IMG/VR virus record: IMGVR_UViG_642979322_000008
Direction: 5' to 3' (one strand)
From: a virus
Lineage: Duplodnaviria; Heunggongvirae; Uroviricota; Caudoviricetes
Length of the DNA: 39,386 bases
A program made the position numbers and the translations under genes. The stretch's first letter is position 1. Each line of letters starts with the position of its first letter. This document shows positions 972 through 38,420 of this stretch, piece by piece. The notes below the pieces were generated by a model. The model worked only from the letters and a program-made list of their open reading frames with translations, searched no databases and was not told the origin of the DNA.

Positions 972-3062
972 ATGTATGTCATTGCAAAAGAACTGATTGG
1001 CGCGCCCGGAATGCCTGCTACAACAAAAGGTATTCGCCAGGCATTACAACGTTACGTACAAGGGAAAAGCTGTTGTTCCCGTCGTCGCTCAGGCTCTAAA
1101 GCAACTGAATACAGCATCGACTGTTTACCTGAAGTGACGCAGCAGGCATTACGTGAACGTTATGCCCTGCAACTGATGACGCAAAAAGCCGATGAATCAC
1201 CGGCTCCGGTGGTGACAAAGGCCAGACGCTCATCTGACGTGGTTGATGCGGTGGAGGCATATCGCGGATCACCACAACTGATGGTCGAACGCCTCAATGC
1301 CCTGACTGAAAACCAGCGCCAGGTGGCTGATGCACGAATCGCGATCGTCAGCGAAGTGATGAAAGTCGCGCAACAACCCGGTTTCAGCTGCGCGAAGGCT
1401 ATCCGGTTTATCGTTGACAACCTGGCACGTTCACAGCTGGACGAGCGCATTGTGGCAATGGTTGAGACGGCGAACGCCAAAAAGGGAAACAGCCGTGCGT
1501 TGAGTGAAATCACGCTGAAGCGATGGATTGCGGCCTTTAACAAGGCACAGAACGCCGCTGAACGCCTGCTTTTACTGGCACCGGGTAAACGCCAGGAAAT
1601 AAAAGCCGAAGATATTAACTGGCTGCCCGAATTTCTGGCGCAGTATCGCCAGTCAAACGGCCGACCAATGACCGAGGCTTACGAGGATTTTGTCGCTGAA
1701 TGGCAGCACCGGCACGCTGATGAGCCTTATATGCTCGATATCATGCCGTCTTATGACACCATTCGCCGCGCAATGAAGAAACTGCCGGAAGTGGTGAAAC
1801 AAAAAGGCCGGGTGACCGGCAGTGAATACCGCCAGCTTGAGGGATTCACGCGCCGCGACTGGTCCAGAATGCCGGTGAATTATGTCTGGATTGGTGACGG
1901 TCACGGCATGAAGCTGAAATGCGCACACCCGGTTCACGGTCGGCCATTTGCACCGGAAGTGACCTTTGTTATCGACGGTGGCACGCGCTTTGTGGTGGGC
2001 TGGAGCCTTGACCTGGCTGAAAATGTTTTCGCCGTAGCCGGTGCCATACAGCACGGCATTCGCCATCACGGCAAACCGTTTCTGTATTACTCGGATAACG
2101 GCTCCGGGGAAACCGCCGACATCCTGGATAAGGAGGTTGTGGGGATACTGCCGCGACTGGGGATTAATCACCCGACCGGGATTGCCGGTAATCCGCAGGG
2201 ACGAGGCATTATCGAACGGCTTAACCGCACATTACCGATGCGCATAGCCCGTAAATACCGCACCTATTTCGGGAAAGGTGCAGATCGCGAGACGTTACGC
2301 AAAACCAACCGCGATTTACGCTCGGCATTTACTGCCCTGCAACAGGGCAAACGGCTGAACGCCCGGCAGCAGTCAGCGATGCGTGATTTACCGTCCTGGT
2401 CTGAACTGATTGATGCCATTCGTGATGGTGTTGAGTGGTACAACAACCGGCCGCACGATGAATTACCGGTGAAGCCGAACGGCAAGCATTACAGCCCGGC
2501 GGAGTTCAGAAAAAAACGCCTGGCGGAAGAGGACACGGAAATTGAATGGCTGTCCGATGTGGAATTGCGGGACATGTTCCGGCCGATGGTGGAACGCCCT
2601 GTAAGACGCTGTGAAATACGCTGGCTGAATAATATTTACTACGCGCCCGAGCTGCGTGATGAGCATGGCCGCAAGGTGCTTATCAGCTATGACATTCATG
2701 ATGCCGAACGAATTACCGTACGTCGCCTGGATGGCAGCGTGATTTGCGAGGCGGTATGGGACGGTAATAAACGCGAAGCCTTCCCGGTTAGCGCGGAATA
2801 CTACAAACAGCAGCAACGCCTTAAAGGCATGCGTAAACGCGCAGAGGAAAAAATCCGTGATGCCGAGGATGAGGTTGTCAACGTGCTGGAGCACAAGCCG
2901 CAGGAGCCCTGGCTGGAAAACATCTATCGCCCGGTAGGTAATACGGTGGCCGTTCAGCAACCTGCCATTGATGATGAGCCTGATGAAGAATACGAGCGCA
3001 ATTTCCAGCGGGGATTGCAGTTGCTCGAAGCGAAATTAAAAGAAAATGACCCGCTGGCCTGA
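972..3062 (+). CDS. A: Mu-type DDE transposase A
   Basis: 696-aa ORF immediately after ner; size and position match MuA (663 aa); family assignment by recalled similarity. Confidence 0.88.
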   Translation: MYVIAKELIGAPGMPATTKGIRQALQRYVQGKSCCSRRRSGSKATEYSIDCLPEVTQQALRERYALQLMTQKADESPAPVVTKARRSSDVVDAVEAYRGSPQLMVERLNALTENQRQVADARIAIVSEVMKVAQQPGFSCAKAIRFIVDNLARSQLDERIVAMVETANAKKGNSRALSEITLKRWIAAFNKAQNAAERLLLLAPGKRQEIKAEDINWLPEFLAQYRQSNGRPMTEAYEDFVAEWQHRHADEPYMLDIMPSYDTIRRAMKKLPEVVKQKGRVTGSEYRQLEGFTRRDWSRMPVNYVWIGDGHGMKLKCAHPVHGRPFAPEVTFVIDGGTRFVVGWSLDLAENVFAVAGAIQHGIRHHGKPFLYYSDNGSGETADILDKEVVGILPRLGINHPTGIAGNPQGRGIIERLNRTLPMRIARKYRTYFGKGADRETLRKTNRDLRSAFTALQQGKRLNARQQSAMRDLPSWSELIDAIRDGVEWYNNRPHDELPVKPNGKHYSPAEFRKKRLAEEDTEIEWLSDVELRDMFRPMVERPVRRCEIRWLNNIYYAPELRDEHGRKVLISYDIHDAERITVRRLDGSVICEAVWDGNKREAFPVSAEYYKQQQRLKGMRKRAEEKIRDAEDEVVNVLEHKPQEPWLENIYRPVGNTVAVQQPAIDDEPDEEYERNFQRGLQLLEAKLKENDPLA

Positions 3063-3132
3063 AATAAAAAATAACCCGAGCGGCGACTCAGGTTATTTGA
3101 TTAAACAAGGTATCAAATGAGAGGTTAATAAT

Positions 3133-4065
3133 ATGACTGATATTAACGATGTAATCAAGACCATTGATGAACTTATTGATGGCGGCGTACTGACGCAGTA
3201 TGCCATCGCCAGAGAGGCGGGAATTTCCGACGGCACATTATCGGCTTTCCGCAAGGGGAAATATAAAGGCGATAACGCCGCTGTGGCTGCTTCCCTGCGT
3301 TCCTGGTATGAGAACTGGAATAAACAAAGCGCACTGCCGGAACCGCCGCAGTTTGTGGAAACGCAGACAGTTCAGGAGCTGCGCGCACTGTTTCAGGCGG
3401 TTCGCCTGATGGGCTGTATTAACGTCATTGTGGGCGTGCCGGGGGTAGGTAAAACGGCCACCGCCCGTAATTACTGCCAGGAGCAACCAAACACCTGGAT
3501 GATCACCCTGTCACCCGCGCACTCCAGCGTCACGGAGTGTCTGCTGGAGCTGGCCGATGCGCTGGGGATTGATTACACCCGCGCGAACAAAGGGGCATTA
3601 TCCCGCGCCATCCGCCGTCGCCTGATGGGAACGCGTGGACTGGTGATTGTGGATGAGGCGGATCATCTTGGTATTGACGGTCTGGAGCAACTCCGGGCAA
3701 TTCAGGACGCCACGGGGATCGGGATGGTGCTTATTGGTAACCCGCGCGGATTGTTTAAAGGTGGACGCCGCGCCTTTGATGATTTATCGCGCCTGTTCAG
3801 CCGTCTTGCCCGTACAAAACAACTTCGCAAGGCCAAAAAGGCGGATGTGCTGGCCATTGCCAGGGCATGGGGTATCAGTGGTGAGGCCGAGCTGGCCGTC
3901 ATGCAGGCTATCGCTGAAAAGCCGGGAGCGTTACGCGTTCTGACACATACGCTTAACCAGGCGTGGCTCACCGCCAGCGGTGAAGGTGCGGCGCTGACAG
4001 AAAAACATATTAATGCGGCCTTTAAAGAGGTTTATACCAACCCTGAATTACTCTCACAGGTGTGA
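3133..4065 (+). CDS. B: Mu B-like AAA+ ATPase, transposition target-DNA activator
   Basis: 310-aa ORF after A; Walker A GVPGVGKT and Walker B VIVDEAD; N-terminal HTH-like region. Confidence 0.88.
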   Translation: MTDINDVIKTIDELIDGGVLTQYAIAREAGISDGTLSAFRKGKYKGDNAAVAASLRSWYENWNKQSALPEPPQFVETQTVQELRALFQAVRLMGCINVIVGVPGVGKTATARNYCQEQPNTWMITLSPAHSSVTECLLELADALGIDYTRANKGALSRAIRRRLMGTRGLVIVDEADHLGIDGLEQLRAIQDATGIGMVLIGNPRGLFKGGRRAFDDLSRLFSRLARTKQLRKAKKADVLAIARAWGISGEAELAVMQAIAEKPGALRVLTHTLNQAWLTASGEGAALTEKHINAAFKEVYTNPELLSQV

Positions 4066-7643: not shown

Positions 7644-8195
7644 ATGATGAAATTACAACCCATGGGGAGAAAAGGCCGTGCACCCGCTCATGTTCGCGCA
7701 TGGACACCTGAAGAAGATGCGCTGCTGATTGCGCTTTATCCATCCACCCCGGTTAAGGATATTGCTGTCAGGATAAAAAGAAGTTTCTGGGGTGTACATA
7801 ACCGGATTGTTTTATTACGCGGTACTTACCCGGAGTTGCTCAAATGCAAACGCCTCAGATTTAAACCTGATGAAGATAAATTTATCCGAAAAAATGCCAG
7901 GACGATGACCGGTAAGCAAATAGGAGAATATCTGGGGCGAGACCGGGATTCTGTCCACAATCGGGCGCGATATATTGGCGTAAGCATGAAAAAATACGGA
8001 GAATTACTGCCTTTTACCCGCATACCTGACGATGATGTTCATCTTATTCGTGAATTACGGGATGCTGAATCACCACGGCGTCTTACCTTTAGGGAAATCG
8101 GCGAGAAATTTGAATTATCCGAGGGCACGGTGAGTTTTATTTATCACCGTCGTCGGACTGCCGAAGATGTTGTATTACGGGAGTTAACGACATGA
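7644..8195 (+). CDS. hypothetical protein with three tandem Myb/SANT-like HTH repeats
   Basis: Three internal repeats: WTPEEDALLIALY...VHNRI, FKPDEDKFIRKNA...VHNRARYIG, IPDDDVHLIRELR...TVSFIYHRRR. Confidence 0.55.
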   Translation: MMKLQPMGRKGRAPAHVRAWTPEEDALLIALYPSTPVKDIAVRIKRSFWGVHNRIVLLRGTYPELLKCKRLRFKPDEDKFIRKNARTMTGKQIGEYLGRDRDSVHNRARYIGVSMKKYGELLPFTRIPDDDVHLIRELRDAESPRRLTFREIGEKFELSEGTVSFIYHRRRTAEDVVLRELTT

Positions 8196-8377
8196 TAAGG
8201 AGACTTGTTTTTTTCGCAATTATCGTTCCTGTGTGGGGGGTTGGTTTTATATTTGCGGTTACAGGAAATCTGTCCATGATGCCGGATATATGGTTCTTTA
8301 TCAGGATGTCGCTCTTCCTGTTTATTATGAATCTTCTTATCGACATATATATCCGTATTACTGGAAAACATAAATGA
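8192..8377 (+). CDS. small hydrophobic membrane protein (two predicted TM helices)
   Basis: 61-aa ORF, highly hydrophobic; first gene of an AT-rich block. Confidence 0.45.
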   Translation: MIRRLVFFAIIVPVWGVGFIFAVTGNLSMMPDIWFFIRMSLFLFIMNLLIDIYIRITGKHK

Positions 8378-8415
8378 GAAAAATCACGACCTTGTCAGAG
8401 TTACAGGAGATGAAT

Positions 8416-8748
8416 ATGAGTATTGAATTAAGATCGTCTTATGAATATCGTAAAATTCTCATCGCCGGAGGCATGAAACCGGAAGATGCAGAAAAAATCG
8501 TTTCTTTTATGGATAAAGAATGTGACAAACGGGATATGCCAGAAATTATTATGGATGACATGATTCTGGATTCAGCCGTGGCGTTAAGTCCGTTATGGAT
8601 TGTGCATTCTCTTGCTGAAATTGCCAAAGGCACCGATAAACAGGCAGCTGTTGCTGCCCTTCAGACGCTTAATGAAATGCGTATATCTCCACGCCCGACA
8701 TTAATACATATGATTCTGTCCAGCATGGAGGATAAAGCAAATGAATAG
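8416..8748 (+). CDS. hypothetical protein (AT-rich island)
   Basis: ATG at 8416 preceded by AGGAG (track start 8374); acidic 110-aa product. Confidence 0.45.
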   Translation: MSIELRSSYEYRKILIAGGMKPEDAEKIVSFMDKECDKRDMPEIIMDDMILDSAVALSPLWIVHSLAEIAKGTDKQAAVAALQTLNEMRISPRPTLIHMILSSMEDKANE

Positions 8749-8938
8749 TCTACCCGCTGGATGGGCGCGGCCACTAATGGCCAGGAAGCATCATTTTTTT
8801 AAAACAGGCGAAAATATCAGTATATGTGGACGGTGGTTATATCTGGCTCATAATCGCGAGCCGGATACATTTGAAAGCCCTGATGACTGTGCCGAATGCC
8901 GCAGAAGAGTGAATAAGGAGAAAGATAATGGACAATAG
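8741..8938 (+). CDS. hypothetical small protein with possible Cys zinc-ribbon (C..C / CAEC)
   Basis: 65-aa ORF, overlapping starts/stops with neighbours. Confidence 0.4.
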   Translation: MNSLPAGWARPLMARKHHFFKTGENISICGRWLYLAHNREPDTFESPDDCAECRRRVNKEKDNGQ

Positions 8939-9224
8939 TTCTCTGTTGTTCTGGTGCTTATATATCACATCCTTTTTCGGCGCATTTGTTATTACCCGGT
9001 GGTTATGTCGAAAAATCATCTGCTTTTTTGATAAAAGACATCCGGTTGAACGGGCGGCTGATGCGCTCATTCAGCAGGCCATTGTGTTATATAGCGGTGA
9101 GTTTTTCTGCCGGATAACAACCAGAGATGGCTGGCACATAATGATTATTCCACCAACACACCATGCCCGGTGGGATGAGGCAGAAAAGGCTTTCCATGTC
9201 CGTAAAAAGGTAAATACGGTATGA
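8928..9224 (+). CDS. hypothetical protein with N-terminal TM helix
   Basis: 98-aa ORF, hydrophobic N-terminus LLFWCLYITSFFGAFVI. Confidence 0.4.
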   Translation: MDNSSLLFWCLYITSFFGAFVITRWLCRKIICFFDKRHPVERAADALIQQAIVLYSGEFFCRITTRDGWHIMIIPPTHHARWDEAEKAFHVRKKVNTV

Positions 9225-9730
9225 GAGGAAAACTGATATCCGCCATTCATGTGGCAAAGCGCGAGCTTGCCCTGGATGATGAGACTTATACATCCGCGCT
9301 GCTGGCAGCCACCGGCAAAACCAGCTGCCGGGATATGTCACCGGATGAGTTATCCCGCGTGCTGGATGTTTTCAAAAAACGCGGTTTTAAAGTGCGTCAG
9401 AACCCGGTTAACCGGGCCTTAAAACCGGGTACGGTGACCGCCAAAATTCGCGCCATCTGGAAGGTGATGCACCGGCAGGGCTTTATCACCGATGGTGCGG
9501 AAACCGCCCTTAACCGCTGGGTGAAATCGCAGACGGCCGCGCAGAACGGCGGCGAAGGTGTGGCAAACTGGCAGTGGCTGGAGCAACACCCCGCCCTGGC
9601 CTCAGATGTGCTGGAGCGTCTCAAGCGATGGCACCGCCGCAAAATGCTGGCCGCGATGGGAATGCCCGAACGCACGCTGATGGGGTATGACGCCGTTTGC
9701 AGGCAGTATGAAAAATCACTTCCCCGTTAA
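9221..9730 (+). CDS. gemA: GemA-like protein (Mu gp16 family)
   Basis: 169-aa ORF; N-terminal LISAIHVAKRELALDDETY...TGKTS matches recalled Mu GemA; position before Mor/C gene. Confidence 0.75.
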   Translation: MRGKLISAIHVAKRELALDDETYTSALLAATGKTSCRDMSPDELSRVLDVFKKRGFKVRQNPVNRALKPGTVTAKIRAIWKVMHRQGFITDGAETALNRWVKSQTAAQNGGEGVANWQWLEQHPALASDVLERLKRWHRRKMLAAMGMPERTLMGYDAVCRQYEKSLPR

Positions 9731-9734
9731 CCCC

Positions 9735-9765
9735 AAATCCCGCCACAACGCGGGATTTTTATTTT
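9735..9765 (+). terminator. rho-independent terminator after gemA
   Basis: Stem AAATCCCGC / GCGGGATTT with 6-nt loop followed by TTATTTT. Confidence 0.65.
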
Positions 9766-9799
9766 AAACTTACCGGGAACGCGAGAACCGGAGGCTGAT

Positions 9800-10225
9800 A
9801 TGGCAGAAACTCAGATGAGCATGTTTGGTGGTGACAGTGAGCAACTGCACGCCCTTATCGACCGCCTTGATGACATCCCTGATGATGTTCTCAAAAAGAA
9901 CTGGCCGCGGACCCTGTCAGAACTGGTTGAAGTCACCGGCGCAGAACTTCAGCGTCAGGGGATTGAGCCGGTACTGGCCGGTAAACTGGCACGCAAGGTG
10001 GCTGCGGCTCAGGCAGCCTATATGGGCGGACGGGGTTATTACCTGCCGGTCGGGGAATCTCTCTTTGCCGAGCTGCGAAACAATGAGATATTTTCGCGCT
10101 GGGACCGGGGCGAGAAAATTGAATCCCTTCGCCGCCATTACCGGATGTCAGAAACCCAGATTTATACCGTCATACGCGAACAGCGCCGTCTGCATCTGGC
10201 AAGAACGCAACCGCCACTTTTCTGA
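9800..10225 (+). CDS. Mor/C-family transcription activator (middle/late gene activator)
   Basis: 141-aa ORF with C-terminal HTH (ETQIYTVIREQRRL); architecture like Mu Mor and C; only one such gene found. Confidence 0.75.
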   Translation: MAETQMSMFGGDSEQLHALIDRLDDIPDDVLKKNWPRTLSELVEVTGAELQRQGIEPVLAGKLARKVAAAQAAYMGGRGYYLPVGESLFAELRNNEIFSRWDRGEKIESLRRHYRMSETQIYTVIREQRRLHLARTQPPLF

Positions 10226-10296
10226 TATTCCGCAAAGCCTGCCGCCTCTCCTTCACCGTTACGCTGACTCAGAGAACATCATGAGACAGCGTAACA

Positions 10297-10797
10297 ATGC
10301 CAAAACTCCCCGCACCACTGCGTAAAAAGCTGATTGCCCTTGTTCTGGCCGGTGCCGGGACGTTCACGATTGCCACGCATTACACCGGTTACTGGGAAGG
10401 GAAAGAAAACTCCACGTATATCGATCCCACCGGTACACCCACCATCTGTTACGGCCATACCGGCCCGGATGTGAAACCGGGTATGACCCTGACAGATGAA
10501 GAATGCCTGGAACTACTGGAAAAGGACATGAAATGGGCCTTTGCGGCCATTGATCGGCGTGTTCAGGTGCCGCTTACCCGTGGTCAGACGGTGGCGCTGG
10601 CTTCGTGGATCTTCTGGGCCGGTGAAACGAACTTTCGCAACTCCACGCTTCTGCGCCTGATCAATGCCGGGCAGATGCCCGCGTCCTGTAAGCAGTATAT
10701 CCGCTGGATTTATTCAAAGGGGGTGAAACTCCCCGGCCTTGAGGCCCGCCGTTCGGCGGATGAATGGTTATGTCGCTACGACTTGCCGAAAGTCTGA
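10297..10797 (+). CDS. lys: SAR endolysin (lysozyme, T4-like glycoside hydrolase fold)
   Basis: N-terminal signal-anchor LIALVLAGAGTFTIATHY followed by E...D...T catalytic spacing (YWEGKENSTYIDPTGTPT). Confidence 0.8.
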   Translation: MPKLPAPLRKKLIALVLAGAGTFTIATHYTGYWEGKENSTYIDPTGTPTICYGHTGPDVKPGMTLTDEECLELLEKDMKWAFAAIDRRVQVPLTRGQTVALASWIFWAGETNFRNSTLLRLINAGQMPASCKQYIRWIYSKGVKLPGLEARRSADEWLCRYDLPKV

Positions 10798-10870
10798 ACC
10801 GCTTCTGGCGACCGCTCATGATAGCGCTGCTGTGTGCGGTACTGCTGTTACGGGGTGTCCTGTGGCTGCG

Positions 10871-11260
10871 GTGAATAATGCCTTACCGGCCCTGATTGCC
10901 GGGGCGTGCATGGCGGCGCTGGGGATTATCGCTGTACTGGTTGCCGCTATATGGGGAATGCACCAGAAGACGCAGCGCCTTGAAGACAATAATCAGGTGC
11001 TTGTGCGTGAGCGGGATGAGGCGCGTCAGGTGCTGGCAAATCAGCAGCACACCCTGCAACTCATTTCACAAATCAGTGAGGCGGCCACGAATGAAAAACA
11101 ACAGAACATTCAGCACAGCGAGGGGCAGCAGAGCGTTGTCCGCCGGTCGCTGGCAGCAGTGCCTGCGGCCTCTGCCCCTGTTCCTGATGATGTGGCTGAT
11201 CGGGTGCGCCGGGCCGTCTGTGAAATACGTGCCTGTGAAGCCGGTGCCGATCCCCGCTGA
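10871..11260 (+). CDS. i-spanin (Rz-like); start uncertain
   Basis: N-terminal TM segment ALIAGACMAALGIIAVLVAAIWG then charged/coiled region; GTG 10871 chosen, other in-frame starts possible. Confidence 0.45.
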   Translation: MNNALPALIAGACMAALGIIAVLVAAIWGMHQKTQRLEDNNQVLVRERDEARQVLANQQHTLQLISQISEAATNEKQQNIQHSEGQQSVVRRSLAAVPAASAPVPDDVADRVRRAVCEIRACEAGADPR

Positions 11261-11462
11261 ATGGCTGGCTGACTGCCTGGTCCCTCCTGCGCCGGAGCCG
11301 TTCACGTTTGGGGCATCGGTCACTTACAACCTGCAACTGCTGGCGGTGATCAAGAACTGCAACGTGGACAAGGCCAGTATTCGTCGTCTGGAGACGCGGC
11401 GACAACATGAATTTACTGATATGGCCGGAACGCCTGCTGTTCCGGCAGGAAAAACGAAGTAA
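11091..11462 (+). CDS. o-spanin (Rz1-like lipoprotein), overlapping i-spanin in another frame
   Basis: Lipobox-like LIGC followed by Pro-rich sequence; start uncertain. Confidence 0.45.
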   Translation: MKNNRTFSTARGSRALSAGRWQQCLRPLPLFLMMWLIGCAGPSVKYVPVKPVPIPAEWLADCLVPPAPEPFTFGASVTYNLQLLAVIKNCNVDKASIRRLETRRQHEFTDMAGTPAVPAGKTK

Positions 11463-11471
11463 GGAAAAGGT

Positions 11472-11699
11472 ATGGATGATTCAGATCGTGCTCAGGCTGT
11501 GATGGAGCGGGGATCAGAACGCGCCCTTTGTAACCGGCTGACACGTAAGCGCCAGGCAGTGGATACGCCGGGCAGACGTGTCTGCGCGGACTGTGGCGGA
11601 GAGATCCCCGCCGCACGTCTTGTTGCTGTGCCGGATGCCATCCGTTGTGTGAACTGCCAGAACATCATGGAGGCCCGTCATGTGGGTCAGCATCGTTAA
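11472..11699 (+). CDS. TraR/DksA-family C4 zinc-finger protein
   Basis: CxxC...CxxC (CADCGG...CVNCQ) in a 75-aa ORF. Confidence 0.6.
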   Translation: MDDSDRAQAVMERGSERALCNRLTRKRQAVDTPGRRVCADCGGEIPAARLVAVPDAIRCVNCQNIMEARHVGQHR

Positions 11700-11988
11700 A
11701 GATTATGTTGTGCCGATCCTTTCGGCGACGGCAACCGCTGGCGGGATATTCATGGCGCTGATGCGCAAAACGTTTGTCCCCCGCGAGGCCTTTGAAAAAC
11801 TCTCCGACCGCGTTGAGAAGGTGGAAACCCGCCTGTCGTCACTGCCGACAGAAGCCGAGGTCAACCGTCTGAATGTGGAAATCGTGACCCTGCGGGGTGA
11901 ACTGAAAACCACGAACGCCACGCTCCGCTCTGTCTCCTATCAGAACGAACTGCTGCTGGAGCAGGCTGTAAGGAAAAAAACGCAATGA
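11680..11988 (+). CDS. hypothetical membrane-anchored protein (Mu gp25-like position)
   Basis: N-terminal hydrophobic segment then coiled-coil-like region. Confidence 0.5.
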   Translation: MWVSIVKDYVVPILSATATAGGIFMALMRKTFVPREAFEKLSDRVEKVETRLSSLPTEAEVNRLNVEIVTLRGELKTTNATLRSVSYQNELLLEQAVRKKTQ

Positions 11989-12275
11989 GTGATTTCATTA
12001 CTGAAGATCAGCGTCTGGTCATTCTGCGGTCGCTGGCAGATTACAACGGTGAACTGGGTGAATCCGTGCTCCAGGACTGTCTGGATGATTACGGCCACCG
12101 CGTGTCCCGCGACACCGTTCACACCCACATTGCCTGGCTTGCCGAGCAGGGACTGGTGCGCAAACGCGTTCTGATTAACGGTTATTTCATCGCGGAACTG
12201 ACCGGTCGTGGGCAGGATGTGGCGGAAGGCCGGGTCTGCGTTCCGGGTGTGAAGAAACCACGCGCAAGGGGGTAA
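11985..12275 (+). CDS. hypothetical protein (Mu gp26-like position)
   Basis: 96-aa ORF overlapping neighbours by 4 nt. Confidence 0.5.
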   Translation: MSDFITEDQRLVILRSLADYNGELGESVLQDCLDDYGHRVSRDTVHTHIAWLAEQGLVRKRVLINGYFIAELTGRGQDVAEGRVCVPGVKKPRARG

Positions 12276-12277
12276 CG

Positions 12278-12859
12278 ATGGACAAGCCGACGCGTGGTCG
12301 TGTACGCAAGGTGGATTTGCTCCCCGACAGCATCCGTAAGCCGCTGCTGGAAATGCTGCGTGAAAAACGTCTGACGCAGGTCCAGATCCGTGAGGAAATC
12401 AACCGTCTGATCCGTGAGGCGGGCCTGCCGGAAGAGCAGCAGCTTTCACCGGCGGCCATCAGCCGGGAAGCCTCCCGTAATGAGCTGATTGCCCGTAACC
12501 TGCGTGATTTACGCGAGCAGACAAAAGCCATGATGGCCGAACTGGGGGACAAGCCGACCGGTGAAACCACAGCGCTGATTCTGGAAATGTCCCGCGCCCT
12601 GATGTACCGCCGCCTGCGTGCCGCGACCGAATCTCTGAACAGCGACAGCGACGTGGATATGCGCCTCATCAAAGACATCCTCCTGTCAGCACAGCGTGCG
12701 GAAAGTGCCGCCGAGCGCAGCATTAAGCGTGAAAAAGAAATCCGGGCCGCATTTGCTGAAGAGATGGCAAACGCGGTCACCGACGAGCTGCGCGGCGTGG
12801 ACGGGATGAGTGAACAGCTTGAGTCCCGTATTAAGGGGATTCTGTTGGGTAAAGCCTGA
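12278..12859 (+). CDS. putative terminase small subunit (Mu gp27-like)
   Basis: 193-aa ORF immediately upstream of, and overlapping, the large terminase gene. Confidence 0.55.
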   Translation: MDKPTRGRVRKVDLLPDSIRKPLLEMLREKRLTQVQIREEINRLIREAGLPEEQQLSPAAISREASRNELIARNLRDLREQTKAMMAELGDKPTGETTALILEMSRALMYRRLRAATESLNSDSDVDMRLIKDILLSAQRAESAAERSIKREKEIRAAFAEEMANAVTDELRGVDGMSEQLESRIKGILLGKA

Positions 12860-33601: not shown

Positions 33602-34162
33602 ATGCTGATTGGCTATATACGCGTATCAACAAATGACCAGAACACAGGTTTACAAAGAAATGCGCTGGAATGTGCAGGATGTGAGCAGATTTTTGAAGAT
33701 AAAATGAGTGGTAAAACGACACAGCGGCCGGGACTGAAGCGGGCACTGAAGAAACTAAAACCCGGTGACACACTGATGGTCTGGAAACTGGACAGGCTGG
33801 GGCGCAGTATGCGCCACCTTGTTGCGCTGACAGATGAATTACAGCAACAGGGGATAAATTTTCGTAGTCTTACTGACAACATTGATACGTCAACCCCCAT
33901 GGGGCGCTTCTTTTTTCACATAATGGGTGCGCTGGCAGAAATGGAGCGTGAATTAATTGTCGAACGGACACGGGCTGGTCTTGCAGCTGCCCGTGAAAGG
34001 GGACGAACCGGCGGCAGACCCCGTCGTCTCACGCAGGAACAATACGAGCAGGTCGGGCGTTTACTGGCCGGGGGTGTCAGTCGAAGACAGGTGGCACTTA
34101 TTTTTGATATCGGCCTTTCAACCCTTTATCGTTATTATCCTGCGAGCGTTTCGGAAAAATAA
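33602..34162 (+). CDS. gin: serine-recombinase DNA invertase (Gin/Pin/Cin/Hin family)
   Basis: 186 aa; MLIGYIRVSTNDQ with catalytic Ser, RSLTDxIDTSxPMGRFFFHxMGALAEMERELIxERT and C-terminal HTH match Mu Gin almost throughout, as recalled. Confidence 0.93.
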   Translation: MLIGYIRVSTNDQNTGLQRNALECAGCEQIFEDKMSGKTTQRPGLKRALKKLKPGDTLMVWKLDRLGRSMRHLVALTDELQQQGINFRSLTDNIDTSTPMGRFFFHIMGALAEMERELIVERTRAGLAAARERGRTGGRPRRLTQEQYEQVGRLLAGGVSRRQVALIFDIGLSTLYRYYPASVSEK

Positions 34163-34261: not shown

Positions 34262-36301
34262 ATGACGTCCAAATGGGTTCAACTATCATCAATGCCCGGA
34301 AACTTTACTGTTAAAGTTTCCGGTGGTACAGCGGCATTTCTTGAGGCTCCCTTTCCTCCGGCCGAAACAAAAGGAGGAATGACATTTGCTGACTGTCTCA
34401 TCAGTTTTAATACACGGGATTGCCTGTGGGTAAGGCCAGTATCCGGTGATCCGAGTGTGGAAATTACCGGAGCGGGTATTGGTGCGGTCATTCCGTTAAG
34501 TGCTGATGTTGCCGGTACTGCTGAACCGTCAGACTGGGATAATGCTGAAACACATACCCGTCCGTCAGGAAATGAAACTGCTTCCAGCTCCCCTTCCTGG
34601 TATTACGTGGTGGTTCTTGCTGGTCAGTCAAACGGTATGGCTTACGGTGAAGGTCTGCCACTGCCGGAGACATATGACCGCCCCGAACCGCGTATTATGC
34701 AGTTAGCCCGTCGCAGTACAGTCACGCCGGGAGGTAAAGCCTGTCAGTATAACGACATCATTCTGGCCGACCACTGTCTGCATGATGTGCAGGATATGAG
34801 TGGAAAAAATCACCCGAAAGCGGATGTGGCTAAAGGGCAATATGGCACCGTGGGTCAGGGGCTTCACATTGCCAAAAAACTGCTGCCGTTTATTCCGGCA
34901 GATGCGGGGATTCTGCTGGTTCCCTGCTGCCGTGGTGGTTCTGCATTCACGGCGGGTGCTGACGGCACGTACAGTGACAGCACGGGTGCTTCAGAGGACT
35001 CAGCCCGCTGGGGTGTGGATAAGCCGCTGTATAAGGACTTAATCAGCCGGACAAAAGCGGCACTGGCGAAGAACCCGAAAAACCGCCTGCTTGCTGTGGT
35101 GTGGATGCAGGGCGAGTTTGATATTGATGCGAAGCCGACGGAGCATTCCGCGCTGTTTCTGGCGATGGTGGAAAAATTCCGCGCAGACCTGGCTGAACAG
35201 GCGGAACAGTGTACCGGTGGCAGTGCTGCTGGCGTTCCGTGGATTTGTGGCGATACCACGTATTTCTGGAAACAGAAAAATGAACCGGCATACCAGGCAA
35301 TCTATGGCGGCTACAAAAACAAAACAGATAAAAACATTCATTTCGTTCCATTAATGACAGATGAAAATGACGCGAATGTACCCACCAACAATCCGGCAGA
35401 AGACCCGGATATTGAATCCATTGGTTATTACGGCTCAACGTGGCGTAACAGTGCCGCCACCTGGACATCTGCGGACCGGGCCAGCCATTTCAGTTCATGG
35501 GCACGTCGTGGGATTATTTCCGACCGTCTGGCCACGGCAGTTCTGACTCATGCGGGGCGAACCACAGTAAAAGCCGATGTTCCATCTTCTGAAACTGAAG
35601 CACCAGTGCCGTCACCTTCAGAAACTGAAGCAGTAACCACAACACTGCTGTCTTATCGTGTCAGTGAGTCAGAAGGAAATCTGAAAGCCCAGGGCTGGGA
35701 GCCGGCTGGCGGTAAAGCTGAAATTATCAGTGATGCAGGAGGCACAGGTGGTAAGGCAATGAAACTGACCAAGGAAACAGGTAAATCATCCTGGTATCTG
35801 GATCATGATGCCGGTACTGGTGCTGAACTGCTGAAAAATGGTGGTTTAATCAGTTGTCGTTTTAAAGTACCTGGCGACCTGGTGGCAAACCAGTATGTCA
35901 TGGGGCTTTACTGGCCGGTTTCCTCTCTGCCGCAGGGTGTCACCCTGACAGGGGATGCAGGGAATAATCTGCTGGCATCGTTCTACATCCAGACAGACGC
36001 AAAAGACCTGAATGTGATGTACCACAATGCAAAAGTGGCAACAAATAACCAGAAACTGGGAACCTTTGGTGCATTTGATAATGAATGGCATACGCTGGCC
36101 TTCCGTTTTGCAGGAAATAACAGCCTTCAGGTTATTCCGGTTATTGATGGTCAGGATGGTGCCGCGTTTACCCTGACGCAGTCACCAGTAGGAACTTTCC
36201 CGGTGGACAAACTCCGCGTAACGGATATCACAAAAAATGCAACTTACCCGGTGCTGATTGACAGCATTGTGGTGGAAGTGAAAAAAGCGGTAACAGAATA
36301 A
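34262..36301 (+). CDS. SGNH/SASA-family carbohydrate O-acetylesterase-like protein (prophage NanS-p-like) with additional N- and C-terminal domains
   Basis: 679 aa; GQSN motif (VVVLAGQSNGMAYGEG) typical of sialate O-acetylesterase-type SGNH hydrolases; Ser/Thr/Pro/Glu linker (SETEAPVPSPSETEA) before a C-terminal beta-rich domain. Confidence 0.55.
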   Translation: MTSKWVQLSSMPGNFTVKVSGGTAAFLEAPFPPAETKGGMTFADCLISFNTRDCLWVRPVSGDPSVEITGAGIGAVIPLSADVAGTAEPSDWDNAETHTRPSGNETASSSPSWYYVVVLAGQSNGMAYGEGLPLPETYDRPEPRIMQLARRSTVTPGGKACQYNDIILADHCLHDVQDMSGKNHPKADVAKGQYGTVGQGLHIAKKLLPFIPADAGILLVPCCRGGSAFTAGADGTYSDSTGASEDSARWGVDKPLYKDLISRTKAALAKNPKNRLLAVVWMQGEFDIDAKPTEHSALFLAMVEKFRADLAEQAEQCTGGSAAGVPWICGDTTYFWKQKNEPAYQAIYGGYKNKTDKNIHFVPLMTDENDANVPTNNPAEDPDIESIGYYGSTWRNSAATWTSADRASHFSSWARRGIISDRLATAVLTHAGRTTVKADVPSSETEAPVPSPSETEAVTTTLLSYRVSESEGNLKAQGWEPAGGKAEIISDAGGTGGKAMKLTKETGKSSWYLDHDAGTGAELLKNGGLISCRFKVPGDLVANQYVMGLYWPVSSLPQGVTLTGDAGNNLLASFYIQTDAKDLNVMYHNAKVATNNQKLGTFGAFDNEWHTLAFRFAGNNSLQVIPVIDGQDGAAFTLTQSPVGTFPVDKLRVTDITKNATYPVLIDSIVVEVKKAVTE

Positions 36302-37528: not shown

Positions 37529-37729
37529 ATGTATCGAAACATACGGTGCCGACACTGCAATAAGCTACTGGCACGGGCCAGTTTCAGTTATCTGGAAGTA
37601 AAATGTCCGCGCTGTAAAACCCTCAATCAAATCACATCTCCGAGCGCCACAGAGCACCCCACATACACAAGGAAATCCTGTCGTGGGGAACAGAAAGCAA
37701 GTCACATCCCGAATCATCAGCACGCCTGA
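37529..37729 (+). CDS. com: Com zinc-finger translational activator of mom
   Basis: [17 protein letters not shown]...EVKCPRCK matches Mu Com Cys4 pattern (IRCKNCNKLL...EIRCPRCK) as recalled; overlaps the mom start. Confidence 0.8.
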
Positions 37730-38420
37730 ACTTATTCGCTATAACGACAATATCGTTGGTTATGGCTCCCGTGAGTTGCGGGTTGAGACAATAAGTTGCT
37801 GGCTGGCCAGACTGGTCATCGTCAATAAACATTACAGCCACCGTTTCGTAAATAACTCCTACCTTCATCTGGGCATATTTTCAGAACGGGAACTTGTTGG
37901 CGTAATGCAATGGGGTTACGCCCTTAACCCAAACAGTGGTGCACGCGTCGTAACGGGTACGCAGAACCGAGAATATATGGAGCTTAACCGGCTATGGCTG
38001 CATGACTGTATGCCGAGAAACTCCGAATCAAGGGCAATCAGTTACGCGCTCAAGCTAATCAGGCAGCTTTATCCGCAGGTACAGTGGGTTCAGTCGTTTG
38101 CAGATGAGCGTTGTGGCTGTCTTGGTGTCGTGTATCAGGCAAGCAATTTTGATTATGTAGGCAGCCATGAATCAATATTCTATGAACTTGATGGCGAGTG
38201 GTATCACGAGATTTGCAGGAATGCCATTAAACGAGGCGGACAACGAGGTGAACATCTGAGGGCTAATATTGACAGAGCCAGTGTTCATAAGTTCCGACAG
38301 TTTCGTTACATCCGGTTTCTGAACAAGAGGGCCAGAAAACGCCTCAACACAAAGCTATTCAAAGTCCAGCCTTACCCAAAACCACAAACAGTTAAAACTG
38401 GTTTGAAAGAGAGTGAATGA
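37683..38420 (+). CDS. mom: Mom DNA-modification enzyme (adenine N6-carbamoylmethylation)
   Basis: 245-aa ORF directly after and overlapping com, last gene before the prophage right end; start codon uncertain. Confidence 0.8.

Follow-up and report, generated by a model that had tools for sequence, protein, structure and literature searches.

The window analysed here, 39,386 nucleotides (nt) of viral DNA (Caudoviricetes; IMG/VR record IMGVR_UViG_642979322_000008), is 100% identical over positions 8000-12400 to the Mu-like prophage Sp18 of Escherichia coli O157:H7 Sakai, and our subject is its late lysis cassette, in which the endolysin gene lys starts at 10297. We consider it probable that this cassette works in the manner of phage Mu, i.e. 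without a holin, and that it holds in addition an accessory gene, a micro open reading frame (micro-ORF) of 34 amino acids (aa), whose product would act as a modulator. This reading is built on the homology of the components and their synteny with Mu, on the lack of any match to a holin family, and on the purifying selection that acts on the micro-ORF. The gene order (Mor/C; lys; i-spanin; o-spanin; zinc finger; DUF2730; winged helix-turn-helix; gp27; TerL) is that of Mu genes 21 to 28. After the C-type activator the two phages share four homologous proteins at 27-42% identity in BLASTP: lys and gp22 39% (E 9e-35), i-spanin and gp23 27%, o-spanin and gp23.1 42%, and the DUF2730 protein and gp25 34%. 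The Mu gene chain is visible across the window, from the transposase genes through Gin and Mom, and the domains detected (GemA, Mor/C, gp27, gp36, and Mom) likewise place the cassette in a transposable phage; Mu shares GemA, gp27, and Mom, and also the absence of a holin. Of 5426 complete E. coli genomes, 231 carry the Sp18 element, and Asadulghani et al. (PMC2669165) predicted Sp18 to be intact.

The lysis system of Mu was worked out by Chamblee et al. (2022, mBio, PMC9239132): gp22 belongs to the signal-anchor-release (SAR) endolysins, gp23 and gp23.1 are spanins, and there is no holin, none of gp19, gp20, and gp25 being holin-like. The gp25 protein is not lethal on triggering with dinitrophenol (DNP), and Mu lysis is delayed, not triggered, by DNP. 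Release of gp22 requires gp25 (the “releasin”) and follows a non-holin route; this dependence arises from two adjacent basic residues beside the SAR helix, and unrelated SAR endolysins are also released faster with gp25. The same authors found DUF2730 genes of transposable phages always at most five genes downstream of the endolysin. An earlier, sequence-only reading of this DNA had supposed that the SAR endolysin goes with a pinholin-like depolarising trigger, a premise that finds no support in Mu, where gp25 frees gp22 without a holin (PMC9239132).

The lys gene (10297-10797; the cassette genes all lie on the plus strand) encodes a T4/P21-R-like lysozyme (PF00959, E 6e-37; phrog_7) with the catalytic triad E34-X8-D43-X5-T49, as read from the translation. 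Its N-terminus, MPKLPAPLRKK, is followed by LIALVLAGAGTFTIATHY; the basic residues K3, R9, K10, and K11 thereby precede a weakly hydrophobic 18-residue stretch in which 9 of the 18 residues are Ala, Gly, or Thr, and whose Kyte-Doolittle maximum over 19 residues (1.39) is below that of a normal transmembrane domain (TMD). A muralytic domain with its triad, and a weak Gly/Ala/Thr-rich helix after basic residues, are the sequence features of a SAR endolysin, and we infer that lys encodes one, the counterpart of Mu gp22; the SAR-type anchor seen in the sequence-only reading accordingly appears sound. Apart from two records with the same prophage, the closest phage relatives of lys are lysozymes of Halomonas, Stenotrophomonas, and Xanthomonas phages.

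The fifth gene after lys, with the micro-ORF counted, is 11680-11988. Its product matches DUF2730 over the whole length (PF10805, E 7e-20; score 71.4 bits, cutoff 24.9; residues 6-97 cover positions 3-101 of the 102 in the profile) and is similar to Mu gp25 (E 5e-18), and a tblastn search with it finds the Mu coding sequence annotated as ‘releasin’. This product and gp25 align collinearly, from the TMD and the basic junction motif through the C-terminus: a single N-terminal TMD (residues 10-28, Kyte-Doolittle 1.8) leads to M-R29-K30-T-F, which aligns with M-R-R-S-F of gp25. From the positive-inside rule the protein is predicted to be oriented N-out/C-in with a cytoplasmic C-terminal domain. 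By its sequence it is a homologue of the Mu gp25 releasin, not a depolarising protein, and lys would depend on it as gp22 does on gp25. The sequence-only reading had offered this hydrophobic protein as a possible trigger; the placement and the relevance to lysis were right, but the function points to a releasin and not to a depolariser. Since all the features of the Mu system that can be checked in a sequence are present in Sp18, the “missing holin” corresponds to the known Mu solution.

The two spanin frames do overlap, as had been noticed earlier, and both have family matches. The Rz-like i-spanin, counterpart of Mu gp23, occupies 10862-11260 (phrog_214, E 8e-33) and has an N-terminal TMD with a Kyte-Doolittle value of 2.64; the LysC/Rz1-like o-spanin lipoprotein, counterpart of Mu gp23.1, occupies 11091-11462 (PF23793, E 3e-16; phrog_3001, E 7e-42). 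The latter opens in the +1 frame within the i-spanin gene, with GAGG 9 nt ahead of its ATG, and extends beyond the i-spanin stop at 11260; it carries the lipobox LIGC (Cys39) and a Pro-rich mature part. Family matches, TMD, and lipobox together are those of an overlapped two-component spanin, as in the P2 LysB/LysC type (PF23793), from which the Sp18 pair differs in nothing notable. The Prokaryotic Genome Annotation Pipeline (PGAP) has placed both starts differently. The most likely i-spanin start, judged from the alignments, is GTG 10862, whose homologue in the Citrobacter and L182 clades is an ATG and which has GGGG 6 nt upstream; an alternative is GTG 10871, which overlaps the micro-ORF stop as GTGA. 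The PGAP start of this gene (an ‘endopeptidase’), GTG 10832, probably lies too far in the 5' direction: the extension consists of 10-13 codons that evolve with a ratio of non-synonymous to synonymous differences (pN/pS) above 2. For the o-spanin, ATG 11091 is the likely start, while the LysC start of PGAP (GTG 11220) comes after the lipobox Cys, would delete the lipoprotein signal, and is probably wrong. These RefSeq coding-sequence starts, 10832 and 11220, are positions 3333 and 3721 of sequence L002.

That no canonical holin lies beside lys was the central claim of the sequence-only reading, and it stands. Hydropathy was scanned in the gene-chain ORFs of at least 40 aa, in ORFs of at least 25 aa mostly outside the chain, and in all plus-strand ORFs of at least 25 aa between 4000 and 12300, and no multi-TMD ORF, small ones included, adjoins lys. 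Membrane-like segments appeared in lys (the SAR stretch), the micro-ORF, the i-spanin, the o-spanin signal, 11680-11988, and the early ORFs 8192-8377 and 8928-9224; the only further signals were borderline stretches inside two soluble Mu homologues (gp11-like and gp36-like) and, at the ends of the prophage, two tiny ORFs (28 and 41 aa). Profile searches for a standard holin in Pfam, PHROGs, and NCBIfam gave no holin family match at E<=0.01 for 10764-10874, 11680-11988, 8192-8377, or 8928-9224. The absence of a holin is real, yet it is already explained by the Mu work of Chamblee et al. (2022), and nothing in our analysis supports a depolarising trigger.

What Mu does not have is the micro-ORF (10770-10874), found open in 27 distinct sequences and four lineages. 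Its product is MSLRLAESLNRFWRPLMIALLCAVLLLRGVLWLR, 34 aa from ATG 10770 or 36 aa from ATG 10764. It opens within the 3' end of lys, 28-34 nt deep and in a different frame, and its TGA (10872-10874) overlaps the i-spanin start. The sequence-only reading had noted a tiny hydrophobic ORF at 10819-10875; such an ORF exists, beyond what chance would give, but the span was off by one (10818-10874, MIALLCAVLLLRGVLWLR) and truncated to the C-terminal half, the true start being ATG 10764 or 10770. The aligned peptides share M-V-M, W-R, a hydrophobic run of 13 residues, L-R-G, and a short hydrophobic tail, and end five residues past R-G in ...VLWLR or ...VLWLA. The micro-ORF is not annotated by PGAP, has no family match in the Pfam, PHROGs, and NCBIfam searches, and does not align with Mu gp20 (39 aa, one TMD). 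The idea that it is a duplicated i-spanin TMD segment was dropped, the alignment being uninformative.

From its pattern of substitution, the micro-ORF is very probably a real gene under purifying selection. In the 72 nt outside lys, on which the coding tests were run, the minimal changes at the three codon positions number 14, 6, and 23, and pooled pN/pS is 0.40 for the micro-ORF frame, as against 0.92 for the second frame and 2.45 for the one to which PGAP assigns its i-spanin extension. When the observed differences were placed at random, as few amino-acid changes without a stop were obtained in only 0.4-0.7% of trials in each of four comparisons. Against Citrobacter braakii the synonymous difference (pS) is 0.54 for the micro-ORF and 0.55-0.70 for the neighbouring genes, and pN/pS is 0.34, within the range of the neighbours (0.13-0.61; the o-spanin has 0.28, the N-terminal part of the i-spanin 0.61). 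Since the synonymous rate is like that of the neighbours and replacements are suppressed, the constraint is on the peptide and not on the DNA.

This bears directly on the view that the micro-ORF is not a gene and owes its conservation to the 3' end of lys, the ribosome-binding site of the i-spanin, an RNA structure, an i-spanin extension, or an antisense ORF, which we regard as unlikely. The first nine codons are indeed overlapped by lys, but the neighbour-like pS and the suppressed replacements were found outside that overlap. CGGGG in the R-G codons is also the i-spanin Shine-Dalgarno sequence, which partly explains the invariance of these two codons. PGAP does assign the region to the i-spanin gene, as its 5' end, a reading opposed by the high pN/pS of that frame. 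The antisense frame that shares the wobble positions lacks a start codon and has stops in the Citrobacter clade, so this explanation was ruled out; no conserved RNA structure was predicted at the micro-ORF, the consensus fold being weak (-5.7 kcal/mol; single-sequence z-score -1.3). The rarity of gene calls also favours this view, with a single one in 15 billion proteins, whereas the retention of length, start, and stop in relatives whose endolysins are only 49-55% identical speaks against it. Rz1 is a precedent for a small lysis gene that was overlooked because it overlaps an annotated gene, as the micro-ORF does.

Relatives were gathered by way of the endolysin and of DUF2730. In all of the distinct sequences from the E. 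coli and Citrobacter-type clades (27/27) the micro-ORF is open with the same start and stop; the draft contig L029, which has a frame-shifting indel in this stretch, was left out of the set. Two much more distant Mu-like prophages also have it at the same place, L182 (endolysin 55% identical) and L086/L220 (49%). It is absent from Mu, where there is no ORF at the junction of lys and gene 23, and from every locus whose endolysin is of the Mu-gp22 type. One lineage with an Sp18-type endolysin at 48-53% identity (L085, L185, L186, and L188) lacks it too; there the endolysin has the same LRKKL N-terminus, DUF2730 follows downstream, and the i-spanin is coupled directly to the lys stop by GTGA. The Leu codon of lys that supplies the A of the micro-ORF ATG is TTA or CTA where the ORF is present and TTG, giving a GTG start, in L023; in relatives read without the micro-ORF (L085, L185, and L188) it is CTG or TTG. 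Because sisters with the same endolysin type and DUF2730 do without it, the micro-ORF is accessory and not the obligatory trigger of this type of cassette.

Searches with the peptide itself found little more. Some 15 billion predicted proteins yielded two results: an unnamed Citrobacter-type call of 34 aa, with a start equivalent to ATG 10770, and a frameshift chimera. The chimera was all that a search of 5.8 billion clusters gave, while the 34-aa call, which stems from a Logan assembly, came from 1.84 billion representatives, together with two artefacts due to repeats. Tblastn against phages matched only two records of Stx phages into which an Sp18-like element has been inserted. Pattern scans of IMG/VR produced no contigs beyond the four lineages known from the endolysin and DUF2730 scans, and a scan of genome contigs produced Citrobacter braakii only. 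Two fusions were seen on the way, both most likely assembly errors: in L029/L052/L161 (IMGVR_UViG_2526164665_000023) an indel joins the lys frame to the micro-ORF frame, and in an ENA metagenome protein (P0001) the micro-ORF is joined to the N-terminus of the i-spanin. A different, 52-aa ORF with a single TMD occurs in L138/L141 (about 2945-3110), with its start in the 3' end of the endolysin gene and its stop ahead of the i-spanin; the lysozyme of this contig is 41% identical, and no Mor, DUF2730, gp26, or gp27 was hit there. Small membrane ORFs at the junction of endolysin and i-spanin may be more general.

The working that we propose for the cassette is as follows. A single C-like activator would switch on the late transcript. 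Sec would export the lysozyme, which its weakly hydrophobic N-terminal SAR helix would keep inactive and tethered in the inner membrane, the basic cluster R9 K10 K11 on the cytoplasmic side locking the helix in place. The DUF2730 protein, membrane-tethered in the N-out/C-in orientation and acting from the cytoplasm, would aid the exit of the helix from the bilayer; the freed lysozyme would refold and degrade the wall, and the overlapped spanin pair would then disrupt the outer membrane. The micro-ORF, if translated, would yield a small inner-membrane peptide, an Arg-flanked hydrophobic helix (W-R-x13-R-G-hydrophobic tail) that may insert into the membrane and modulate the pathway, for instance the timing of endolysin release, without being the trigger itself. 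A membrane modulator of lysis timing is our best guess for the peptide; a mini-depolarising peptide is possible but unlikely.

Several points weigh against this proposal. The cytoplasmic domain of the DUF2730 protein has a net charge of +3 in Sp18 and -1 in Mu, and DUF2730 also co-occurs with non-SAR endolysins, so that its general role is unsettled (Chamblee et al., PMC9239132). The N-terminus of lys is also compatible with a cleavable Sec signal, with a conceivable site between T-I-A and T, and its basic residues do not match K6/K7 of gp22 residue by residue in the alignment. As for the micro-ORF, besides the double duty of its R-G codons, its Shine-Dalgarno sequence is weak (GGCGGA, 10 nt upstream), and it is not in the small-gene lists of the supplements to the Sakai RIBOseq paper, in which the prophage was uninduced.

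It is very unlikely, in our judgement, that the micro-ORF is the missing trigger, i.e. a minimal single-helix depolariser, holin- or pinholin-like or type-I-toxin-like, that frees the SAR endolysin. Its hydrophobicity, its position directly after lys on the late lysis transcript, and its purifying selection would suit such a role. There are peptides of similar size, e.g. TisB and Ibs, that are able to dissipate the proton-motive force. A pinholin can bring about the release of Mu gp22 (PMC9239132), so depolarisation is workable in principle. The distribution speaks otherwise: the micro-ORF is missing from the sister prophages that keep the LRKKL-type endolysin and DUF2730, as well as from Mu and all loci of the Mu-gp22 type. 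So does its build, for in place of the full TMD and charged hydrophilic C-terminal domain that mark a holin it has only 13 hydrophobic residues between two conserved arginines and no charged tail. No holin or toxin family matches it, and the same cassette already holds a dedicated releasin homologue. The type I toxins TisB, Ibs, and Hok resemble the micro-ORF in size and hydrophobicity. It differs from them in having neither family similarity nor an antisense RNA context, and in being a phage late gene interleaved with lys and the i-spanin gene.

A conventional holin elsewhere in the prophage is the least probable of all and was rejected: although the 61-aa ORF 8192-8377, a hypothetical protein for PGAP, has two strong TMDs (Kyte-Doolittle 2.62 and 1.91), a class-II-like topology, and a charged C-terminus (RITGKHK), and the one-TMD 8928-9224 might serve as its antiholin, the former belongs to the early operon, 2 kb upstream of lys with gemA and a terminator in between, has a GC content of 36.6% against 53.5% for the window, is limited to the E. 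coli clade and missing from Citrobacter-type relatives with the same cassette, and like 8928-9224 matches no holin family, while the analogous Mu gp19 and gp20 were shown not to be holins and experimentally confirmed holins are all late genes (PMC9239132). As an observation apart, 8192-8377 is AT-rich with a basic C-terminus and has the look of a moron, its sole family signal being a weak one to phrog_19804; 8928-9224 (98 aa, one N-terminal TMD, phrog_17269) reaches only about 50% identity between E. coli relatives that are otherwise close.

The proposed holin-less, Mu-like working of the Sp18 cassette can also be set against known systems as a whole. With Mu it further shares a full-length DUF2730 protein with its basic junction motif (R-K in Sp18, R-R in Mu) and basic residues before a Gly/Ala/Thr-rich SAR helix. 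It differs in the extra 34-aa ORF, gene 23 of Mu overlapping gene 22 directly; in an endolysin from another branch of PF00959; and in the lack of a middle operon. With the pinholin and SAR endolysin systems (S21-68/R21 of phage 21, phiKMV, and Lyz of P1) it has in common the N-terminal SAR-type domain and the E-X8-D-X5-T triad; it differs in having no adjacent two-TMD pinholin or holin family match, and a releasin homologue instead.

The remaining features of this part of the window are in keeping with the Mu gene plan. GemA (9221-9730, PF06252) is followed by a hairpin resembling a Rho-independent terminator (9735-9758, plus strand; a 9-bp stem and then a T run), which closes the early operon. 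The Mor/C-family late transcription activator (9800-10225, PF08765, E 3e-32) comes directly after it and is closer to Mu C (39% identity) than to Mu Mor (26%). There is no second Mor/C-family copy in the window, and the middle operon of Mu (gp18, gp19, gp20, and a separate Mor) is missing. A single activator suggests a two-step instead of a three-step transcription cascade, or an uncharacterised promoter for the activator gene. After the o-spanin comes a TraR/DksA C4 zinc-finger protein (11472-11699; PF01258, E 3e-12; TIGR02419, E 4e-22), likened to Mu gp24 by position alone; then, past DUF2730, a winged-helix protein that sits where Mu has gp26 (11985-12275; NF050184, E 2e-32; phrog_436), which ends the cassette, and the homologue of the small terminase gp27 (12278-12859, PF11985). 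A Citrobacter-type relative (L032, 4093-4458) has an extra Ala/Thr-rich ORF of 121 aa between the o-spanin and zinc-finger genes, which suggests that the cassette tolerates insertions at gene junctions. Near the right prophage end, between a Gin-like invertase (33602-34162) and Mom (37683-38420), lies a cargo gene (34262-36301) for a protein of 679 aa with a SASA sialate-O-acetylesterase domain and DUF6645, which resembles the NanS-p esterases of prophages of enterohaemorrhagic E. coli (EHEC).

The current annotation of the cassette is probably wrong at three places: it leaves out the micro-ORF, it starts the i-spanin too early (PGAP), and it puts the LysC start after the lipobox (PGAP). How a SAR endolysin can do without a holin, an apparent paradox, was already explained by Chamblee et al. 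(2022), and the present analysis carries the Mu paradigm over to an EHEC prophage that is widespread. What it adds to the known is a conserved and overlooked accessory micro-gene between the endolysin and the spanins, a candidate modulator. Tentatively, and with more doubt than confidence, we also entertain that the 34-aa peptide is a new lysis-control factor of holin-less transposable phages, either the smallest holin-like depolarising trigger known or a membrane partner, as brake or co-factor, of the pair of SAR helix and releasin, setting the time of lysis; if true, it would offer a handle on the timing of lysis in phages that have no holins.

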